This document shows positions 50,679 through 58,165 of a stretch of DNA of 64,000 nucleotides, in pieces; position 1 is the stretch's first letter; each line of letters begins with the position of its first letter. Source of the DNA: an uncultured Syntrophomonadaceae bacterium (GTDB lineage: Bacteria; Bacillota; Dethiobacteria; DTU022; PWGO01); contig CAZWVJ010000006.1 of NCBI GenBank assembly GCA_964636865.1, positions 24,882-88,881 on the forward strand, given 5' to 3'. Under the pieces are notes generated by a model. It searched no databases. It saw nothing but the letters and a program-made list of their open reading frames with translations, and was not told the DNA's origin. The position numbers and the translations under genes are program-made.

Positions 50679-50717
50679 GGTGTTAAAGGGGACGGTTCCT
50701 TTTGACACCTTTTTTTT
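50679..50717 (+). terminator. Rho-independent terminator after the acyl-CoA ligase; copy 1 of a recurring palindromic element
   Basis: GGTGTTAAAGG-ggacggtt-CCTTTTGACACC followed by T8. It begins 25 nt after the stop codon. Confidence 0.65.
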
Positions 50718-50779: not shown

Positions 50780-50813
50780 GCCAAAGGGAACGGTTCCTTT
50801 TGGCAGCTTTTTT
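50780..50813 (+). terminator. Second hairpin + T-tract (copy 2 of the same element family)
   Basis: GCCAAAGG-gaacggtt-CCTTTTGGC, then agc and T6. It shares the core GGAACGGTTCCTTTTG with copy 1. Confidence 0.45.
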
Positions 50814-50845: not shown

Positions 50846-51340
50846 CTATTTTTTCTTATTCTTATTTTTACTCTTTTTCTTATTCTTATTACCGGAGTTG
50901 TTTTTTGATTTCGCTTTTTGCTGAGAGTTATTATTGGAAGTGCCGGAGCTATTTTTCATAGTATTGCTGTTGTTCTGTTTCTGCTTTTTCTTCTGCTGGT
51001 TTTCCAAGGCCCTCTTCTGCTGTCTGGTGAGATTTTTCTCCTTGGTACGGTTGTTATAAACCTTGTAGCCGGCAGCTCCAACGGCCAGTCCCCCTGCTAA
51101 CACCAAAAAGGGCCAAGCAGCCATCATATCCGTTTCTGCTTCTGTCTCATATTGGGGTTCATCTGGCTCAGGAGTTTCTGTGTCTTCGGATTCTTCCACA
51201 GTCCCCGGATCAGGTATTATTCCATCCTCACCTTCTTCTAAGCATGCCGCACAAGCCATTAATACTCCCGCAGCGAAAATTAAAGCCACCGTAATGAGGC
51301 AACGTTCCCAGATTTTCAACTTTCGAGGATTTTCTTTCAT
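50846..51340 (-). CDS. Small membrane protein with acidic ectodomain and Lys/Asn-rich C-terminal tail (hypothetical)
   Basis: 164 aa. Two hydrophobic helices flank an E/D/T/P-rich loop. The C-terminal 50 aa are K/N/Q/S low complexity. A GGAGGA ribosome-binding site lies upstream. It is the last gene of the His-rich ABC module. Confidence 0.45.
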   Translation of the reverse strand: MKENPRKLKIWERCLITVALIFAAGVLMACAACLEEGEDGIIPDPGTVEESEDTETPEPDEPQYETEAETDMMAAWPFLVLAGGLAVGAAGYKVYNNRTKEKNLTRQQKRALENQQKKKQKQNNSNTMKNSSGTSNNNSQQKAKSKNNSGNKNKKKSKNKNKKK

Positions 51341-51410: not shown

Positions 51411-52208
51411 TTAATCCATTCTGGCCATCTCATTGGACCACTCAAAATACTCATCCCAAAGAGCTATTACATCTTCCCTGTATGCAGAAAGGTTTTCTTC
51501 TTCTCCTTCCTCCATGAGTTCATTGATTTCTTCTGCCAGTTCTTTTACTTCTTTTAATATCCCCAAAAGAGGCTCAAAAGAATCTACTCCATACCCTTCC
51601 ACTTGATTGATAAGGGCTTCTATTTCACCTATGTCTATCTGTTCCATCTCCTCTTCGGGCGTTTCCTCGGCGGTATAGGCTTGCATTTCGTTCATGACTC
51701 CCAGAAATTCCATCCCCACTCCATCTGCAGTGAGCATAGCATATTCCTGCAGCGACTGGGGCATTTCATCTTTATCCGCAACCTTCAGGTCATTCACATG
51801 TATACGGAAAGGGGTAGTGTAACCGAATTCATCGGTTTTTTCCTCTACTTCCAACTCGCCGCTAACAGTCACCGGTTCTTCGGTAAATTCAATAGAATCA
51901 CCCGCCGGAGCCATGGCAGGTATGGCAGAAACCGGAATGTCGGTACCAGGTATGCAGTAAGGACACTCTACCATGGGAGCGTTGGTCAAGTAAATAAAAC
52001 TACCGTCCAGCGGTGACTGCATAGCCATAAAACCGGTCATGGATACATTATCTCCATCCAGTTCCTTTACCCTCTGTGAAATGTTAAAGTCTTCATCCCA
52101 CAGCTCGGCAAATTGGAGGTGGGCGCTCTCCCCCGGTTCTCCCTCACATCCTGCTGCAAGCAATAAAACAATTGTAGTGAGAATTATCAGTATTTTTTTC
52201 ATATTCAA
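51411..52208 (-). CDS. Lipoprotein of unknown function (CxxC-containing, acidic C-terminal half)
   Basis: 265 aa. Lipobox LLLAAGC. The mature domain contains ECPYCIPG. The C-terminus is Glu-rich. Its start is 3 nt after the upstream FtsX permease stop. Confidence 0.5.
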   Translation of the reverse strand: MNMKKILIILTTIVLLLAAGCEGEPGESAHLQFAELWDEDFNISQRVKELDGDNVSMTGFMAMQSPLDGSFIYLTNAPMVECPYCIPGTDIPVSAIPAMAPAGDSIEFTEEPVTVSGELEVEEKTDEFGYTTPFRIHVNDLKVADKDEMPQSLQEYAMLTADGVGMEFLGVMNEMQAYTAEETPEEEMEQIDIGEIEALINQVEGYGVDSFEPLLGILKEVKELAEEINELMEEGEEENLSAYREDVIALWDEYFEWSNEMARMD

Positions 52209-52210
52209 CT

Positions 52211-53656
52211 CTATTCTACCTCCAAGGGGTCATGTTTGTAAACAGGAAAAATAGAAATTATCGCTGAAATTACAATAATCGCAAAAACAAGGAGCACCAG
52301 GATAAATTCTCCCGGGTAATGTTTAGCCGGGTCTATCATTATGCCCATTCTGTCTGCCGTAAAATTATTGATCAAGTAAAGCCCTCCGTAGCTTATCAAA
52401 AACGAGATGACGATACTCACCACGGAAATAATTACCGTCTGCAGGACAAACAGGGAAAAAATGGTTTTCCTTTTTATGCCCAGCAAGCGCATGATCAAAA
52501 TATCTTTTTTGCTGTCCTCCACAAATGAGGCCGTGGTCACGTAAATTACTACTGCTGCCATAAACACTATAATAGCGGCTAGAGCAATCAATACATCCCG
52601 CCCCAGGTTAAGGTTGTCCATTAGATCCCTTAAAACAGTGGTCGGATTGACCGCTTGCACGCCGGGCTTTTCATCAAACTGAGACTTCAGCTCCATATGA
52701 GCAGCAAGCCCTTCTGTGTTCACAATTACCGATACCAGGTCGCCGGTAACTTTTTCATCGTGGTCGTGGTTATGAGCGTGGTCATCATCATGGCTGTGAT
52801 CATCATGGTCATTGTGGTCATGGCCGTGCTCATCATCGTGGGTATGTTCGTCTGCATCGTTGTGGTCATCATCGTGATCATGGTCGTGTCCGTTGTGGTA
52901 ATGGTCATCGTGGTCATGGTGATCATCATGGTCATGATCGTTGTGTTCATCGTCGTGTTCGTGGTCTTCATGCTCGTGTTCGTCATGCTCTTCATGGTCG
53001 TGGTCATGATCGTCATGCTCATGTTCGTGGTCGTCATTACAATCGTCGTGGTCATGGTCGTGAATTACCCAAACGCTTTCGGCAGTCGTAAAGATAACAT
53101 TGTCCGAAGCCGTCCCGCTCCGGTCAAGAATCCCTACTACTTCGTATTCAAACTCGTCATGAACATGTCCGTTTTCTCCAAAACCATGCACTCCTACAAA
53201 AATTTCGCCTATCTCTAAAACTCCCGCATCAGCCACATTGTAGCCGATTACAGCTTCTTCGGTCTCCTCAAACATTTCGCCTGCCTTCAACCCATAATCC
53301 TGCAGGTATCCCGGGACTGTGCCAATAATGGGAATCCCCTGATAGGAATCTCCGGCAGCCATGGGATAGGCTTCCCTTACTGAGGGATTGGCTTTTAGTT
53401 CTTCATAGTATTTGTAAGGAATCGTCCCCAGCGGACTTTCCGTGAAAAACATGCTGGAAAAAACTAGTTCCAAGGGGCTACCTTCGGGACCCACAATGGT
53501 ATCATAGTATCCCGCCGTTGAAATAATGCCTTCCTCTACTTGATGAGCAGTATTATAAGTGATCAACGCAATGGTGGTACACAATATAACCGCTATGCAA
53601 GCAAGCAATGCCCGGGTGAACCTGGTCCGAAGATTTTTTAGCGCAAATTTAATCAT
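52211..53656 (-). CDS. FtsX/MacB-family ABC transporter permease with approximately 100-aa His/Asp/Glu-rich insert in the extracytoplasmic domain
   Basis: 481 aa. N-terminal transmembrane helix, large extracytoplasmic (MacB_PCD-like) domain and C-terminal FtsX four-helix bundle. The insert HDHDHDDCNDDHEHEHDDHDHDHEEHDEHEHEDHEHDDEHNDHDHDDHHDHDDHYHNGHDHDHDDDHNDADEHTHDDEHGHDHNDHDDHSHDDDHAHNHDHDEK lies between the periplasmic domain halves. Confidence 0.8.
   Translation of the reverse strand: MIKFALKNLRTRFTRALLACIAVILCTTIALITYNTAHQVEEGIISTAGYYDTIVGPEGSPLELVFSSMFFTESPLGTIPYKYYEELKANPSVREAYPMAAGDSYQGIPIIGTVPGYLQDYGLKAGEMFEETEEAVIGYNVADAGVLEIGEIFVGVHGFGENGHVHDEFEYEVVGILDRSGTASDNVIFTTAESVWVIHDHDHDDCNDDHEHEHDDHDHDHEEHDEHEHEDHEHDDEHNDHDHDDHHDHDDHYHNGHDHDHDDDHNDADEHTHDDEHGHDHNDHDDHSHDDDHAHNHDHDEKVTGDLVSVIVNTEGLAAHMELKSQFDEKPGVQAVNPTTVLRDLMDNLNLGRDVLIALAAIIVFMAAVVIYVTTASFVEDSKKDILIMRLLGIKRKTIFSLFVLQTVIISVVSIVISFLISYGGLYLINNFTADRMGIMIDPAKHYPGEFILVLLVFAIIVISAIISIFPVYKHDPLEVE
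52726..53055. repeat. Low-complexity (CAY/GAY)n codon repeat that encodes the His/Asp tract
   Basis: The plus strand reads GTGGTCRTGRTCATCATG... for about 330 bp. It generates spurious long ORFs on both strands (52655-53218 plus and 52726-53055 minus). Confidence 0.85.
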
Positions 53657-54309
53657 TATTTCCCCACCTCGCTTAATTCAGCATTCAGTTCCGACATCTC
53701 TATAAAGACGTCAAAATGATCTTTCATATCATAATCATGGGAAACGGTTATTACCGGTATATCAAATTTCTGCGCGTAACCTGCCGTCAAGGACATGATC
53801 TCATCGGCTATCTTCTTATTCAGGTTACCGGTGGGTTCATCCGCCAGTAATACAAGGGGATCTTTGATGAGAGCCCTGGCAATAGCCACACGCTGTTTTT
53901 CTCCCACCGAAAGGGTGGTAACTTTCTTTTTCTTTTTAGGCAAAATCCCCATGATTTCAAGCATTTTATCAATATCCAGTGTTTTCCTTAATTCCAATTC
54001 CAGAAGCTTCAAGTTATCTTCTACGGTCATCTGGTCAAGCAGACGGAAGTCCTGGAAAACGTACCCCACGGAACTCAGGCGGTACTCATCCCGCTTTACG
54101 GGCGTCCACCCGGTAATATCTCTCCCATTGACCACAACTTCCCCGGCATCAGCAGGAATCACGCCGGCAATAATGTTTAGCAGGGTAGATTTTCCACATC
54201 CCGAAGGACCAAAAACGAGGTAGCTTACCCCCTTTTCAAATGTGTATTCGGGAATGTCAATAATTTTTTCATTGTCATAGCTTTTTTGCAGGTTTTTGAT
54301 ATAGATCAT
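53656..54309 (-). CDS. ABC transporter ATP-binding protein (MacB/LolD-type, partner of the FtsX permease)
   Basis: 217 aa. Walker A GPSGCGKST, signature LSVGEKQRV and Walker B LLADEPT. The stop overlaps the permease start (ATGA). Confidence 0.85.
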   Translation of the reverse strand: MIYIKNLQKSYDNEKIIDIPEYTFEKGVSYLVFGPSGCGKSTLLNIIAGVIPADAGEVVVNGRDITGWTPVKRDEYRLSSVGYVFQDFRLLDQMTVEDNLKLLELELRKTLDIDKMLEIMGILPKKKKKVTTLSVGEKQRVAIARALIKDPLVLLADEPTGNLNKKIADEIMSLTAGYAQKFDIPVITVSHDYDMKDHFDVFIEMSELNAELSEVGK

Positions 54310-54469: not shown

Positions 54470-54506
54470 AGGTGTCAAAAGGAACCGTCCCCTCGGTACC
54501 TTTTGG
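54470..54506 (-). terminator. Hairpin + T-rich tract immediately after znuA (copy 3, inverted, of the recurring element)
   Basis: CAAAAGGAACC-gtcccctc-GGTACCTTTTG. On the minus strand it is followed by ACACCTTTTGTTATTATTT. It contains the reverse complement of the copy-1 core (GGTGTCAAAAGGAACCGTCCCC). Confidence 0.5.
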
Positions 54507-54516
54507 GGTAATGAAA

Positions 54517-55491
54517 TTAGCCAAGGGCTTCCTCCAATTTCATGGTGTTATATAAAAGAAGTTCTATATAGGAATTTCTATTTTCCAGGTCTTCTCCGCC
54601 TAAAGGATCAAGGTAAGCGACCTCGCCCCCGATTTCTTCCGCCAACTGCTTAGCTACTGCCGGGTTAAGCTGGGGTTCGCAAAAAATCACGCAGGCGCCG
54701 ATTTCCTCTGCGACACCAACCAGTTCAGCCATCCAGGCGGCAGAAGGCTCCTGGCCAGGATAAGGCGCTATAACCGCTGCCTCCTCCAGGCCATACCGGT
54801 CCGCAAAATACTTCCAGGCAGAGTGATAGGTAATAAATTGATTGCTATAAAAGTCGGAAACTTTTTTTTCAATCTCGGCATGGGCCTGCGTCAACTGCTG
54901 CGTATAAAGCTCCCGCTGATCGCTGAAATAATCTTCCTTCGCCGGTTCTGCTTCCGCAAGGACTTTTTCGAGCTTGGGCAAGACTTCATCCCTGACCAGT
55001 AGAGGATCCAACCAAATATGGGGATCACCCCCTTCCTTTTTACACGTGGAGGAATGGTCGGAATTGGCAGTTTCCTCATAGAATTTAGATGGAGAAGACG
55101 CTTCCTTGAGCTGAACTCCCTCGGTTAACTCTACTACTTCCAGATCAGAGGGGGCGGCCTCTATCACCTCAGCAGCCCAATCGTCAAGTCCTCCTCCCAC
55201 GTGAACAAATACGTCCGCTCCGGACATCTTTTTCATTTGCTCCACTGTAGGATCAAAAGTGTGAGGACTGGCACCGGAAGGAAGAAGGTAACTCACTTCT
55301 ACTTCTTTCCCACCGATATTCCGGACGATGTCGGCAAGGGGGAAAATTGTGGTAACTACTTTAACACTCTCTTGCTCATTAACACCCCGGGTATTCTCAT
55401 CACAACCGCATACCCAGAAATTAAGGGAAAATAAAGCAACTAATATTATTAATACTGCCGGTTGAAACTTGCGCATTTTTATCACTCTCAA
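54517..55491 (-). CDS. znuA: Metal (zinc-type) ABC transporter substrate-binding lipoprotein, ZnuA/TroA family
   Basis: 324 aa. Lipobox ...LNFWVCGC. Cluster-9 solute-binding protein fold with DPHIWLDP and a flexible acidic/His loop. Context with znuB, znuC and a Fur-family regulator. Confidence 0.8.
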   Translation of the reverse strand: MRVIKMRKFQPAVLIILVALFSLNFWVCGCDENTRGVNEQESVKVVTTIFPLADIVRNIGGKEVEVSYLLPSGASPHTFDPTVEQMKKMSGADVFVHVGGGLDDWAAEVIEAAPSDLEVVELTEGVQLKEASSPSKFYEETANSDHSSTCKKEGGDPHIWLDPLLVRDEVLPKLEKVLAEAEPAKEDYFSDQRELYTQQLTQAHAEIEKKVSDFYSNQFITYHSAWKYFADRYGLEEAAVIAPYPGQEPSAAWMAELVGVAEEIGACVIFCEPQLNPAVAKQLAEEIGGEVAYLDPLGGEDLENRNSYIELLLYNTMKLEEALG

Positions 55492-55508: not shown

Positions 55509-55525
55509 TTTCAATTTTTCTCATT
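55509..55525. promoter_or_regulatory. 17-bp AT-rich near-palindrome just upstream of znuA (candidate Fur-family/Zur operator)
   Basis: TTGAAATTTATTTTCAA has one mismatch from perfect dyad symmetry. It is 18 nt upstream of the znuA start codon. Confidence 0.3.
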
Positions 55526-55696
55526 TTATAATATTAGCTTCTCTTATGTCAATGCCTTTGAAGTAAATATTAAATGATAATAATTATCAATAATTATAAA
55601 AAAACACCTATAACCTATATCTCTTAGCCATTCTCATTTAAAATATTAAATTATATAGGTCCGGGCATAATATAGCTGCAAGTATGATAGCTTAAC

Positions 55697-56149
55697 TTAA
55701 CTGGAAGCGGAACAATGGGGGCAAAGCCCGTAGGCCACCGTAGAATGGGAGTAAATCTTAAACCTGGTGGACGATTCAATATCTTCCACCAGATGTTTGA
55801 AATTGCAGTTGCCAAACTCTACAATACGCTTGCATTCCATGCACACCAGGTGATGGTGATGGTCTTCGGGAAGGATTATTTCATAACGTTGGCGGCCCTC
55901 GGGAAGTTCCAGGGTGTTAACTATATTCAACTGACGAAGCAGATCCATGGTTCGATAAACCGTAGCCACTCCTATACCGGGGTAATCTTTACTCACCTCA
56001 GAATACAGATCATCAATATCCGGATGCCCTTCGGTATGGATCAAAAATTCAATAATGGCCAGGCGGGGTCCTGTTATTTTATAACCATGGTTCTTAATTT
56101 CATTCTTTATTTTTTCCAACAAAGGCCTAAGCCGTGAATTATTTGCCAT
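55697..56149 (-). CDS. zur: Fur-family metalloregulator (probable Zur)
   Basis: 150 aa. Winged-helix N-terminus, HHHH motif, CxxC pairs (CMEC, CPHC). Embedded in the znu locus. Confidence 0.75.
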   Translation of the reverse strand: MANNSRLRPLLEKIKNEIKNHGYKITGPRLAIIEFLIHTEGHPDIDDLYSEVSKDYPGIGVATVYRTMDLLRQLNIVNTLELPEGRQRYEIILPEDHHHHLVCMECKRIVEFGNCNFKHLVEDIESSTRFKIYSHSTVAYGLCPHCSASS

Positions 56150-56268: not shown

Positions 56269-57072
56269 TTACCTTTTGTACAACCACGAAAGGCCAAACA
56301 AAACGGTCATGGTAAGCACAATTGAAGCTCCCGAAGGAACATTGAGATAATATGAAATTACCAATCCCCCCAGGCAACCCATCATACCAACCACTACCGC
56401 AATAACAAGCAAAGAGCGGTAATGCCGGGAAAGTCGGTAACCTGTGGCAGCGGGAATGACCAGCAAAGCTGCAGCCAGTACTATACCCACCACCTGCACA
56501 GAAACCATTATGGTAACACCCACAGCTGCCATTAAAGCAAGATAAAGCGGAGTTACAGGCAGGCCACCAGCCACAGCCGCCTCTTCATCAAAACAAATGG
56601 CCAGCAACTCTCTAAAAAATAAAAGGAGGAAAGCCAGCACTACTACCATGGCTACAGCCAGAATAACGAGATCTTGCCGAGACACCGCCAGAATGTTTCC
56701 GAAAAGCAGGGAAAAAAGTTCAGGATAATACCCCCGGGCATAGCTGATAATCCCAATGCCCAAAGCCATACCGGAAGAAAAGAATATCCCGATGATGGTG
56801 TCTTCATTGATACGGGTACTACGGCTAATCTGACCGGTAATTACGGCTACAGCCACCGCAAAAATGCTGCCGGTAAAAACAGGACTTACACCCGAAACCA
56901 GCCCTATGGCAATGCCCCCCAGGGCAGAATGGGATACCCCTACCCCCAGAAAAGAAAGCCGCTTCATTACCACAAAAAAAGAAACTAAAGAACACAACAG
57001 CCCGATCATAATCGCAGCCAGCAAAGCATGTTGCATAAAAGTAAAAGAAAACATCTCAATCATGGTGTTCAT
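56269..57072 (-). CDS. znuB: Metal ABC transporter permease (ABC-3/ZnuB family)
   Basis: 267 aa polytopic membrane protein typical of ZnuB/MntB permeases. It overlaps the upstream ATPase gene by 17 nt. Confidence 0.8.
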   Translation of the reverse strand: MNTMIEMFSFTFMQHALLAAIMIGLLCSLVSFFVVMKRLSFLGVGVSHSALGGIAIGLVSGVSPVFTGSIFAVAVAVITGQISRSTRINEDTIIGIFFSSGMALGIGIISYARGYYPELFSLLFGNILAVSRQDLVILAVAMVVVLAFLLLFFRELLAICFDEEAAVAGGLPVTPLYLALMAAVGVTIMVSVQVVGIVLAAALLVIPAATGYRLSRHYRSLLVIAVVVGMMGCLGGLVISYYLNVPSGASIVLTMTVLFGLSWLYKR

Positions 57073-57805
57073 CTCCCGCCCTTAAATAGTCAAATTGGCA
57101 TTGATACGCATCCTCCAGTTGGGAGCTATGCAAAACATCCGCCGGGTTGCCGTGAATATGCATATACCTGTTAATACATATTAACGAAGTGGCATAAGGG
57201 ATTATGCCGGTGAGTTCATGATAGATAAGCAAAACGGTCATTTGACGTTCTCGCTTCAAGCGGTCCAACAGCTCCATGAAAGATTGTTTGGCCGGAAAAT
57301 CCAGGCCGGCTACCGGTTCATCCAGGAAAAGAATGCGAGGCTGATGAACCATGGCTCTGGCCAAAAGGACCCGCTGCTGCTCTCCTCCGGAAAGTTCCGG
57401 GAAAGGACGGTTGATATAGTTTTCCATCCCCACATCCCTTAACACTTCTTTAACCTTAAGTTCAAGGTTTTTAGACCTCTGTAAAATAGCAGGCGTTTTC
57501 AGGGAAAGAAGTCCCATGGAGACCACATCTCTCACCGAAACGGGGAAACGCTGCTCGTAAGTATGACGCTGGGGCAAGTAACCGATAATATTTTTTGTTT
57601 TCCCAAGTTGATGGGCCGGTTTACCCAGTATCAAAACCCTGCCACTGCGTGTTGGTATTAAACCCAGTAACATCCGCAAAAGAGTGGTCTTCCCTGCTCC
57701 ATTAGGGCCGATTATACCTACTACATCTCCTTGATTGACCTGAAAATTAATATCACTTAAGACCTCTTTCTTGTTTAATTCTACATAGGCGTTTTCTACT
57801 GAAAT
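57056..57805 (-). CDS. znuC: Metal ABC transporter ATP-binding protein (ZnuC-like); the start codon is unresolved
   Basis: Walker A GPNGAGKTTL, signature LSGGEQQRV and Walker B LFLDEP. The reading frame is open upstream to a stop at 57884-57886. The only ATG/GTG/TTG in that stretch is the TTG at 57679 chosen by the track, and it lies inside the Walker A motif. The upper coordinate given here is a provisional ATT codon (encoding LISVENAYVEL...). Confidence 0.55.
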   Translation of the reverse strand: MSVENAYVELNKKEVLSDINFQVNQGDVVGIIGPNGAGKTTLLRMLLGLIPTRSGRVLILGKPAHQLGKTKNIIGYLPQRHTYEQRFPVSVRDVVSMGLLSLKTPAILQRSKNLELKVKEVLRDVGMENYINRPFPELSGGEQQRVLLARAMVHQPRILFLDEPVAGLDFPAKQSFMELLDRLKRERQMTVLLIYHELTGIIPYATSLICINRYMHIHGNPADVLHSSQLEDAYQCQFDYLRAGDEHHD

Positions 57806-58165
57806 GAGCGGGGTATAATCTTTGTCTTTAGGTATCTTAAAAGCAGCGATAAAAAACTCCCCTCTCCAAATATAATCATGATTTCACAACCAGCCGTTCA
57901 TCCATTTAATATTAACAATTCTAACTATTAAAAGCAAAGGAACCGATTATGCTGGGAGTGCGGTTAATATAGCTGCCAAAGGGTTCTTTTTATTTATTAT
58001 TCCCATTTATCTACTAAAATTATACACACCCAATATGCGCCCACTCAGCACCTTCCTAATAATGAAAACTTCCATTGTTACCATAGGGATATTTCAAGTG
58101 GGGATAGAGATTATCTCATCAATTTTCCAGGCCTGATTTCAATGCCCTTTGCATTTGCAATAGGA

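Follow-up and report, generated by a model that had tools for sequence, protein, structure and literature searches.

The subject of this report is a 104-residue tract, rich in histidine, aspartate and glutamate, that lies within an FtsX/MacB-type permease of the type VII ATP-binding cassette (ABC) class. Both are encoded on the minus strand of a 64,000-nt stretch of contig CAZWVJ010000006.1 (assembly GCA_964636865.1), from an uncultured Syntrophomonadaceae bacterium; this whole stretch is called the window below. The permease (52211..53656, 481 aa) was recognized from its open reading frame (ORF), from Pfam, and from an AlphaFold2 model with its Foldseek matches, and the tract within it occupies 52751..53062. 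Both Pfam matches, MacB_PCD at residues 21-195 (E 4e-9) and FtsX at residues 358-475 (E 3e-15), are above the gathering thresholds. The layout consists of a first transmembrane helix (TM1), an extracytoplasmic Porter/Sabre domain that the tract interrupts, and TM2-4. By this topology, by its FtsX module and by the cognate ATPase gene next to it, the protein is a type VII (MacB/FtsX-type) ABC permease. The minus-strand genes of the region follow one another in the order znuC-like, znuB, Fur-family regulator, znuA/AztC-like, ABC ATPase, permease, 265-aa lipoprotein and 164-aa protein.

The tract comprises residues 199-302 of the permease (HDHDHDDCNDDHEHEHDDHDHDHEEHDEHEHEDHEHDDEHNDHDHDDHHDHDDHYHNGHDHDHDDDHNDADEHTHDDEHGHDHNDHDDHSHDDDHAHNHDHDEK), opening with HDHDHDDCNDDHEHEH and closing with HAHNHDHDEK. 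Its 38 His, 39 Asp and 12 Glu make up 89 of the 104 residues (86%), a composition far beyond chance; the permease outside the tract has 1.9% His, 4.5% Asp and 7.1% Glu. An acidic residue stands beside 36 of the 38 His. A preliminary description of this DNA, made from the sequence alone, had reported an insert of about 100 His/Asp/Glu-rich residues in the extracytoplasmic domain of an FtsX permease, encoded by an in-frame repeat of CAY and GAY codons. The insert is borne out by the residue counts, by Pfam and by the AlphaFold2 model, and the codon repeat by the 77 of 104 codons that are CAY or GAY. The coordinates given at that time (52726-53055) overlap the tract almost fully but belong to an out-of-frame ORF of the minus strand (52726..53055; MTTTIVMTTT...). 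This ORF and another on the plus strand (52655..53218) were rejected as genes and are by-products of the CAY/GAY repeat. Such spurious ORFs through the tract, one Val/Ile/Met-rich and one Thr/Met-rich, could mislead gene callers. Synonymous codons are used evenly within the tract (CAC 21, CAT 17, GAC 21, GAT 18, GAA 8, GAG 4), which suggests selection on the amino acids, and their mixture makes the DNA an imperfect repeat and no clean microsatellite. Tandem Repeats Finder returned imperfect periods only (6-21 nt, 59-91% match), and no exact direct repeat exceeds 17 nt (a pair of copies in frame, 123 nt apart).

The AlphaFold2 model of the permease, built on 141 relatives, has a mean predicted local distance difference test score (pLDDT) of 84 and a predicted template modelling score (pTM) of 0.77. 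The pLDDT falls below 50 only at residues 209-298, between helix 192-207 and strand 309-314, and exceeds 90 almost everywhere else, both flanks included. The elements of the model are arranged as TM1 helix 13-47, beta-alpha-beta 53-70, a mixed subdomain up to helix 192-207, the tract, beta-alpha-beta 309-336 and TM2 338-381. From this model, the tract is predicted to be disordered and extracytoplasmic, between TM1 and TM2. Taking the Porter/Sabre architecture of MacB to hold here, the order of elements would put the insert where the Sabre joins the second Porter half. The Foldseek search of PDB with the permease model yielded MacB (5gko), LolCDE, Spr0694/5 (5xu1), YtrEF, HrtBA, YbbAP and BceAB, with a probability of 1.00 for MacB, LolCDE, Spr0694/5, HrtB and BceB. 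By sequence, the solved structures align with the permease family in the transmembrane segments only, and no solved structure for any member of the permease subfamily was found in the PDB comparison.

The N-terminal 198 residues of the permease (53063..53656, minus strand), comprising TM1, the first Porter half and the Sabre, carry the conserved residues D103, H157, H166, D185 and W196. In the 141-sequence alignment, D103, G138 and H199 are invariant (141/141), and H157 and D185 (each 140/141), H166 (138/141) and W196 (130/141) are conserved; the tract begins with the invariant H199. A single cysteine close to this end of the tract, Cys206 (53039-53041), is retained in the closest relatives. 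The contexts of the Cys among the permease and its relatives P0001-P0008 are HDHDHDDC, HDHDHDEC, HGHGEC and HDYCG, and in one relative (P0007) seven Cys are scattered across the tract, so to judge from the sequences thiolate ligands or disulfides may contribute to it.

How common the tract is among relatives depends on how they are collected. A first homologue search, which gathers candidates via shared words and is thereby biased toward His-rich proteins, listed 120 homologues, all 120 with a tract near residue 200; given this bias, the result was not used as evidence. An unbiased search was made with the His-tract-free N-terminal 198 aa as the query against 1.84 billion representative proteins and without a word index, and it returned 2235 proteins at E ≤ 1e-3. 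Among the best 150 of the 2235 matches, to which the tally of tracts applies, 119 were full length, and 93 of these (78%) bear a His-rich acidic tract directly after a conserved S-V-W-x-x-H motif. Several of the representatives scored as tract-negative still show short His/acidic motifs at the same position. Tract length in the 93 carriers ranges from 12 to 149 aa (median 32, 90th percentile 68), which places the 104 aa of the window above the 90th percentile of the family. Since a query free of the His tract recovered it in 78% of the full-length representatives, the tract is the norm in this subfamily, and on these sequences it is a hallmark of the family of which the window has a long version, not an anomaly. 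The preliminary description had called such a run abnormal for MacB-type periplasmic domains; this stands for the solved MacB, LolCDE, FtsX, HrtB and BceB but not for the permease's own subfamily. A genome scan based on a 39-sequence subset, and limited to relatives with a GAKGSPLQ motif, found close-motif relatives in at least 598 species-level genomes, mainly of Bacteroidota and Proteobacteria. Named carriers are Pectobacterium, Taylorella, Thalassospira, Croceivirga, Pedobacter, Algoriphagus, Paracoccus, Rhizobium and Deinococcus. Across Firmicutes, Bacteroidota, Proteobacteria, Planctomycetota and Gemmatimonadota the composition of the tract is kept, whereas its sequence and length are not.

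Length polymorphism, which the preliminary description had expected, is pronounced at short evolutionary distances. In the window's own clade, where the flanks are 59-87% identical, the tract measures 18-166 aa. Two relatives, P0001 and P0002, are 99.8% identical outside a 67-aa in-frame indel in the tract (110 vs 43 aa), a difference that may include the collapse of a repeat in one of the assemblies. Among 76 cluster representatives of Pectobacterium, mostly isolate genomes, 27 distinct tract lengths between 45 and 99 aa were counted, and the flanks always sum to 378 aa and are 94.7-100% identical to the reference. Slippage, named at the same time as the likely cause, fits only loosely as the mechanism, because the DNA repeats are short and imperfect; indels of the tract are more likely to arise by recombination or slippage between repeats of ≤17 nt.

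It has to be asked whether repeat mis-assembly produced the tract or its length, as the preliminary description had itself considered. One short-read contig (sample SRR16248214) ends inside the tract, so the repeat is evidently hard to assemble, and the 43 aa of P0002 next to the 110 aa of P0001 could reflect a collapsed repeat. Against this, samples SRR16248206 and SRR16248215 each yielded, in independent assemblies, exactly this 481-aa permease, the three assemblies from the organism of the window are consistent with one another, the reading frame of the permease is intact, and complete isolate genomes (Pectobacterium, Taylorella, Paracoccus) carry homologous tracts. Because two other assemblies yield the identical protein, we do not regard the tract as an assembly artefact and give that explanation almost no credence.

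The gene preceding that of the permease encodes an ABC ATPase of 217 aa (53656..54309, minus strand; Pfam ABC_tran, E 4e-33), the stop codon of which overlaps the permease start. In NCBIfam it comes nearest to models of ATPases that partner type VII permeases (lactococcin-972 ABC, FtsE, LolD and DevA). Downstream of the permease lies the gene of a 265-aa lipoprotein of DUF3299/PA4066/ZrgE type (51411..52208, minus strand), with a lipobox (LLAAGC), an N-terminal OB-fold domain and a CPYC motif. Direct sequence searches with this lipoprotein against PDB and Pfam gave nothing significant. A profile of its family (A2), compared with a profile of the downstream neighbours of 52 distant loci (A5, with the window excluded), matched in hhalign at 99.0% (E 4e-18); the neighbour profile in turn matches PDB 4hsp (PA4066) with E 1.7e-4, and Pfam DUF3299 is matched by 25 of the 61 downstream neighbours in distant loci. 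The AlphaFold2 model of the lipoprotein (pLDDT 82) also has 4hsp as its top Foldseek match in PDB (E 2e-5). By three independent routes (profile-profile, neighbour-profile and fold), the N-terminal domain of the lipoprotein is a DUF3299 domain of the PA4066/ZrgE family. C82 and C85 of the CPYC motif are invariant, and the motif reads CFFC in the wider family. The confidently predicted helical domain of about 120 aa at the C-terminus (about residues 145-265) is clade-specific and occurs only in the Dethiobacter-like clade (16 homologues, all ≥49% identical). Co-oriented and directly after the lipoprotein gene, an ORF (50846..51340, minus strand) encodes a membrane-anchored low-complexity protein of 164 aa, in which two hydrophobic segments, one of them N-terminal, enclose an acidic middle rich in Glu, Asp, Thr and Pro and are followed by a tail very rich in Lys, Asn and Ser. 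No significant family match was found for it in Pfam or NCBIfam; its gene follows the lipoprotein gene in two other assemblies too, and whether it is part of the module is uncertain.

Upstream, the module adjoins the genes of a classical metal importer. The cluster A-I metal-binding lipoprotein of ZnuA/AztC type (54517..55491, minus strand; Pfam ZnuA, E 1e-70) has AztC as its best NCBIfam model (E 3e-45, below the curated cut-off), and its sequence is without a long His-rich loop. The ZnuB-type (ABC-3) permease of this importer lies at 56269..57072 (minus strand; Pfam ABC-3, E 1e-72), and the Fur-family regulator between znuB and znuA (55697..56149, minus strand; 150 aa; Pfam FUR, E 1e-32) is probably a Zur. 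The ZnuC-type ATPase, with AztA-/ZnuC-like NCBIfam matches, extends over 57056..57850 (minus strand), of which the ORF covers 57056..57679. Its Walker A motif (GPNGAGKTT) is encoded in frame upstream of the first canonical start codon, the TTG at 57679, and the stretch from the in-frame TGA (57886-57884) to this TTG lacks any ATG, GTG or TTG. An element resembling a ribosome-binding site (GGAGAGGGGAG) is followed by TTTTTTATC. The sequence suggests a non-canonical start at ATC or ATT, or else an error of sequencing or annotation; in other assemblies, too, the gene callers shortened this ATPase, to 207 aa.

A perfect 7-1-7 palindrome resembling a Fur-family operator (TGATAATAATTATCA, 55575..55589) is located directly upstream of the -35 element of the znuA promoter. 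It is the sole zero-mismatch match to the 7-1-7 palindrome TGATAATNATTATCA in the window, and the best promoter-like site of znuA is TTGACA-18-TAAAAT (11/12) at 55552..55523 on the minus strand. In the 207-nt gap between znuA and the ATPase gene there is a hairpin-forming repeat element (54471..54515, minus strand), a possible partial terminator. Its 22-nt core (GGGGACGGTTCCTTTTGACACC) at 54471-54492 (minus strand) recurs as an exact copy at 50688-50709 and as a variant with three mismatches at 50786-50807 (both plus strand), where none would be expected by chance. The copies stand inside longer hairpins, after znuA and between the converging ends of an AMP-ligase-like gene and the gene of the 164-aa protein; from its sequence, the element looks like a repeat of the REP (repetitive extragenic palindromic) or terminator type.

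Regulation of the orthologous operons was compared at four related loci (L004, L090, L091 and L092). At L091, a regulator 66% identical to that of the window is encoded directly upstream of the operon for ATPase, permease and DUF3299 lipoprotein, and two boxes, near-identical to the window box and each with one mismatch, bracket its TTGACA...TAGAAT promoter. At L092 a Fur-family gene likewise lies directly upstream of the operon. Only L091 has boxes; a Fur-type box upstream of the ATPase gene was not found at L004, L090 or L092. At L090 (5300-5345), another perfect palindrome (AAATGCAAATTAATTGCATTT) stands before the ATPase gene in place of a Fur-type box, and together with an ArsR/SmtB-type gene beside the Dethiobacter copy (L004) this means that the module is not uniformly regulated in the clade.

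Most of 79 distant loci contain, in this order, the ATPase (~210 aa), the permease and a protein of DUF3299 size (~145-160 aa), sometimes with a second DUF3299 gene or a Fur-family gene after the latter. Their neighbours include Fur-family regulators (about 15 of 79 loci), cobW/COG0523 at the -2 position (5 of 75), ZIP (2) and MerC (12 loci, counted over four neighbour scans). Other neighbours at distant loci (including L006, L010 and L020) are His-rich COG0523 proteins and TonB-dependent receptors, one of the latter with His-rich stretches. In Pectobacterium, Paracoccus and Azospirillum (L003 3066-7350; L088 2004-6308; L089 1915-6263), the ATPase gene is preceded by the gene of a ~580-aa alkaline phosphatase and by small hypothetical genes. 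The product of the small gene in Pectobacterium has a weak match to DUF1980_C, and PDB searches with neighbour proteins of Pectobacterium and Croceivirga gave no matches. The adjacency of the alkaline phosphatase suggests that the module is linked to a secreted metalloenzyme.

The closest counterpart of the module among characterized systems is zrgABCDE of Vibrio cholerae and V. parahaemolyticus, which is Zur-controlled and supports growth under zinc limitation (PMC9820375, PMC9817125). Its components are ZrgA, a His-rich periplasmic zinc-binding protein of family DUF2796, the permease ZrgB, with four TM helices and a MacB-like periplasmic domain, the ATPase ZrgC and the DUF2607 protein ZrgD (PMC9820375, PMC9817125); ZrgE, a DUF3299 protein, is in the Zur regulon (PMC9817125). 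PA4063-PA4066 of Pseudomonas aeruginosa is a homologous Zur-regulated operon (PMC4542158, PMC8561739). With these systems the window module shares a separate ATPase and a permease of four TM helices whose large extracytoplasmic domain is MacB-like, an adjacent DUF3299 partner, an association with Fur-family and znu genes, and His-rich disordered sequence, here predicted to bind metal. By analogy, in gene order and in the DUF3299 partner, the permease would correspond to ZrgB/PA4065. Unlike in Zrg, the His-rich sequence of the window lies inside the permease and not in a separate DUF2796 protein (ZrgA/PA4063), and unlike ZrgE/PA4066 the DUF3299 protein is a lipoprotein with the extra C-terminal helical domain. 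The host differs as well, being probably a Dethiobacter-like Firmicute. Neither DUF2796 nor DUF2607 was found among the window genes scanned with Pfam and NCBIfam, nor among the 25 commonest neighbour Pfam families of the 79 related loci, where rare cases are possible. A homologue search with the Pectobacterium permease, saturated by Pectobacterium sequences, returned only Pectobacteriaceae and a few others, and neither PA4065 nor ZrgB.

The tract itself can be likened to the loops of ZnuA, AdcA and ZrgA, which are flexible or disordered, acidic, His-rich, of variable length and extracytoplasmic, and which bind extra Zn2+ at low affinity. In ZnuA the His-rich loops have 12-50 residues (PMC4542158), and in ZrgA a His-rich loop of 60 residues provides 4-5 additional zinc sites in vitro, yet is not needed in vivo (PMC9820375). 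By its sequence and its model, the tract has the traits of a ZnuA/ZrgA-type loop, being predicted disordered and extracytoplasmic, His/Asp/Glu-rich and length-variable among orthologues. It differs from them in that it is two or more times longer and in that it is part of a membrane permease and not of a soluble or lipid-anchored binding protein. Another comparison concerns the His stretches of Hpn, HypB, SlyD, UreE and COG0523 proteins, low-complexity segments rich in His and acidic residues that bind several metal ions per chain and vary in length. The tract resembles these segments in its His- and acid-rich low complexity and in its variable length; Hpn, HypB, SlyD and UreE are cytoplasmic and serve mostly nickel enzyme maturation, whereas the tract is predicted to be extracytoplasmic and lies in a zinc-uptake neighbourhood. 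The permease shares its general plan (TM1, Porter/Sabre, TM2-4 and a nucleotide-binding domain, separate or fused) with MacB, LolCDE, FtsEX, HrtBA, BceAB, YtrEF and YbbAP. The set of conserved His and Asp residues and the tract are defined within the permease's own subfamily, with which the extracytoplasmic domains of the solved type VII proteins gave no alignment. Macrolides, peptides, lipoproteins, haem and partner hydrolases are the known substrates of the solved systems; metal ions are not among them. No description of a His-rich loop in such a permease, or of its conserved His set, was found in the open-access literature searched.

That the composition points to metal, as had been proposed in the preliminary description, agrees with the setting of the module among znuA, a Fur-family regulator, znuBC and a DUF3299 partner, and the metal would most likely be zinc. 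We are somewhat more inclined to accept than to doubt that the tract is a disordered poly-His/Asp/Glu antenna for Zn2+ on the outer face of the cell, in a module of Zrg/PA4064-PA4066 type linked to zinc starvation. The metal, its binding, the route of hand-off and the direction of transport we infer from the sequence and from analogy with these systems. The loop would emerge where the Sabre meets the second Porter half, at the invariant His199, and act as a high-capacity, low-affinity antenna that gathers Zn2+ at the cell surface. It would deliver the ion to a fixed site built from conserved residues that belong to the same domain (H157, H166 and H199, possibly with D103 and D185). ATP-driven movements of the extracytoplasmic domain could then pass the metal on, either to a recipient (the DUF3299 lipoprotein or ZnuA) or across the membrane. 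In this lineage, the loop in the permease would perform the job that is done elsewhere by separate His-rich proteins or loops (ZrgA/PA4063, the ZnuA loop). Several observations weigh against the antenna. All characterized type VII ABC systems are exporters or extractors working by mechanotransmission, and no MacB-fold importer is known. In the window no Fur-type box lies directly before the ATPase gene, and the hairpin parts this gene from znuA; zinc control of the window module is for this reason a matter that we infer, be it by read-through from the znuA promoter, by another route, or by analogy. The divergent ArsR/SmtB-type gene adjoining the Dethiobacter copy and the frequency of MerC genes among the neighbours could point to detoxification. 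Furthermore, PA4064/65 was modelled in 2024 as a MacB-type exporter and was proposed to export a pyochelin-cobalt complex, not to import zinc (PMC11481552).

The ArsR/SmtB-type gene, the MerC genes and the pyochelin-cobalt proposal also favour a role as an exporter or as an extracytoplasmic metallation machine, which would expel a metal or its chelate, or load zinc onto secreted metalloenzymes, with the loop as a transient holding site. The fold and the type of ATPase are those of the exporters and extractors MacB, LolCDE, HrtBA and BceAB. Alkaline phosphatase is a zinc enzyme, its gene directly precedes the module in Pectobacterium, Paracoccus and Azospirillum, and PhoX or PhoD genes are nearby in other loci. 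Most carriers of the family, on the other hand, are not known as pyochelin producers, and Fur/Zur-type regulators, znuA, cobW/COG0523 and ZIP genes are neighbours as well; because these mark zinc-limitation regulons, zinc export would be counter-productive there, and zrgABC of V. cholerae supports growth when zinc is limiting (PMC9820375). We think this role unlikely, though it is the strongest competitor of the antenna. The loop might instead regulate or sense, binding zinc only when the metal is plentiful outside and then inhibiting or switching the transporter. Such a role has precedents in proposals made for PA4063 and for the His-rich loop of Synechocystis ZnuA, and the zinc-saturated His-rich loop of ZnuA has been described as inhibitory (PMC8561739); the dispensability of the ZrgA loop for growth under limitation (PMC9820375) would fit as well. 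Low-affinity poly-His sites, moreover, would fill only at micromolar zinc. The spread in length (12-149 aa in the family, 45-99 aa in one genus) nevertheless fits a capacity element over a switch of defined geometry, and the invariant His at the root of the loop suggests hand-off to a site, not occlusion, so that we consider a sensor improbable. Finally, the tract could be a neutral low-complexity expansion, a tolerated spacer that changes by replication errors and has no role with metals. Rapid change of length would be expected of such a spacer and is found, both in the 43 and 110 aa of proteins otherwise 99.8% identical and in the 27 lengths of Pectobacterium, and about one fifth of the representatives have no tract by the criterion used. 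A spacer would hardly keep the same His-plus-acidic composition at the same position in several phyla, always begin at an invariant His and lie in metal-related gene neighbourhoods, and many of the sequences scored as 'none' still bear short His/acidic motifs there; we find this explanation very hard to sustain.

Beyond the antenna in the window, a wider proposition is that a widespread MacB-fold (type VII) branch handles naked metal ions directly, by means of an invariant His/Asp site and a permease-embedded poly-His antenna that replaces ZrgA. We advance it tentatively, as possible but short of an even chance. If true, it would be the first mechanotransmission-type ABC machine for the acquisition or hand-off of metal at the cell surface. 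Systems of Zrg/PA4063-66 type belong to the zinc-starvation response of the pathogens V. cholerae, V. parahaemolyticus and P. aeruginosa, and their mechanism is disputed between zinc import with ZrgA as the binding protein and export of pyochelin-cobalt complexes. If the wider proposition is true, the loop in the permease would be direct sequence evidence on the import-versus-export dispute over ZrgBC/PA4064-65. Thousands of relatives from several phyla have, in the outer domain of the permease, a poly-His/Asp loop rooted at an invariant His and further conserved His, which speaks for direct contact of this domain with the metal. H157, H166 and H199 and the deletable loop are concrete targets for experiments, and the hypervariable length of the loop within species and genera offers a natural series in which the capacity for zinc capture may be compared with habitat.

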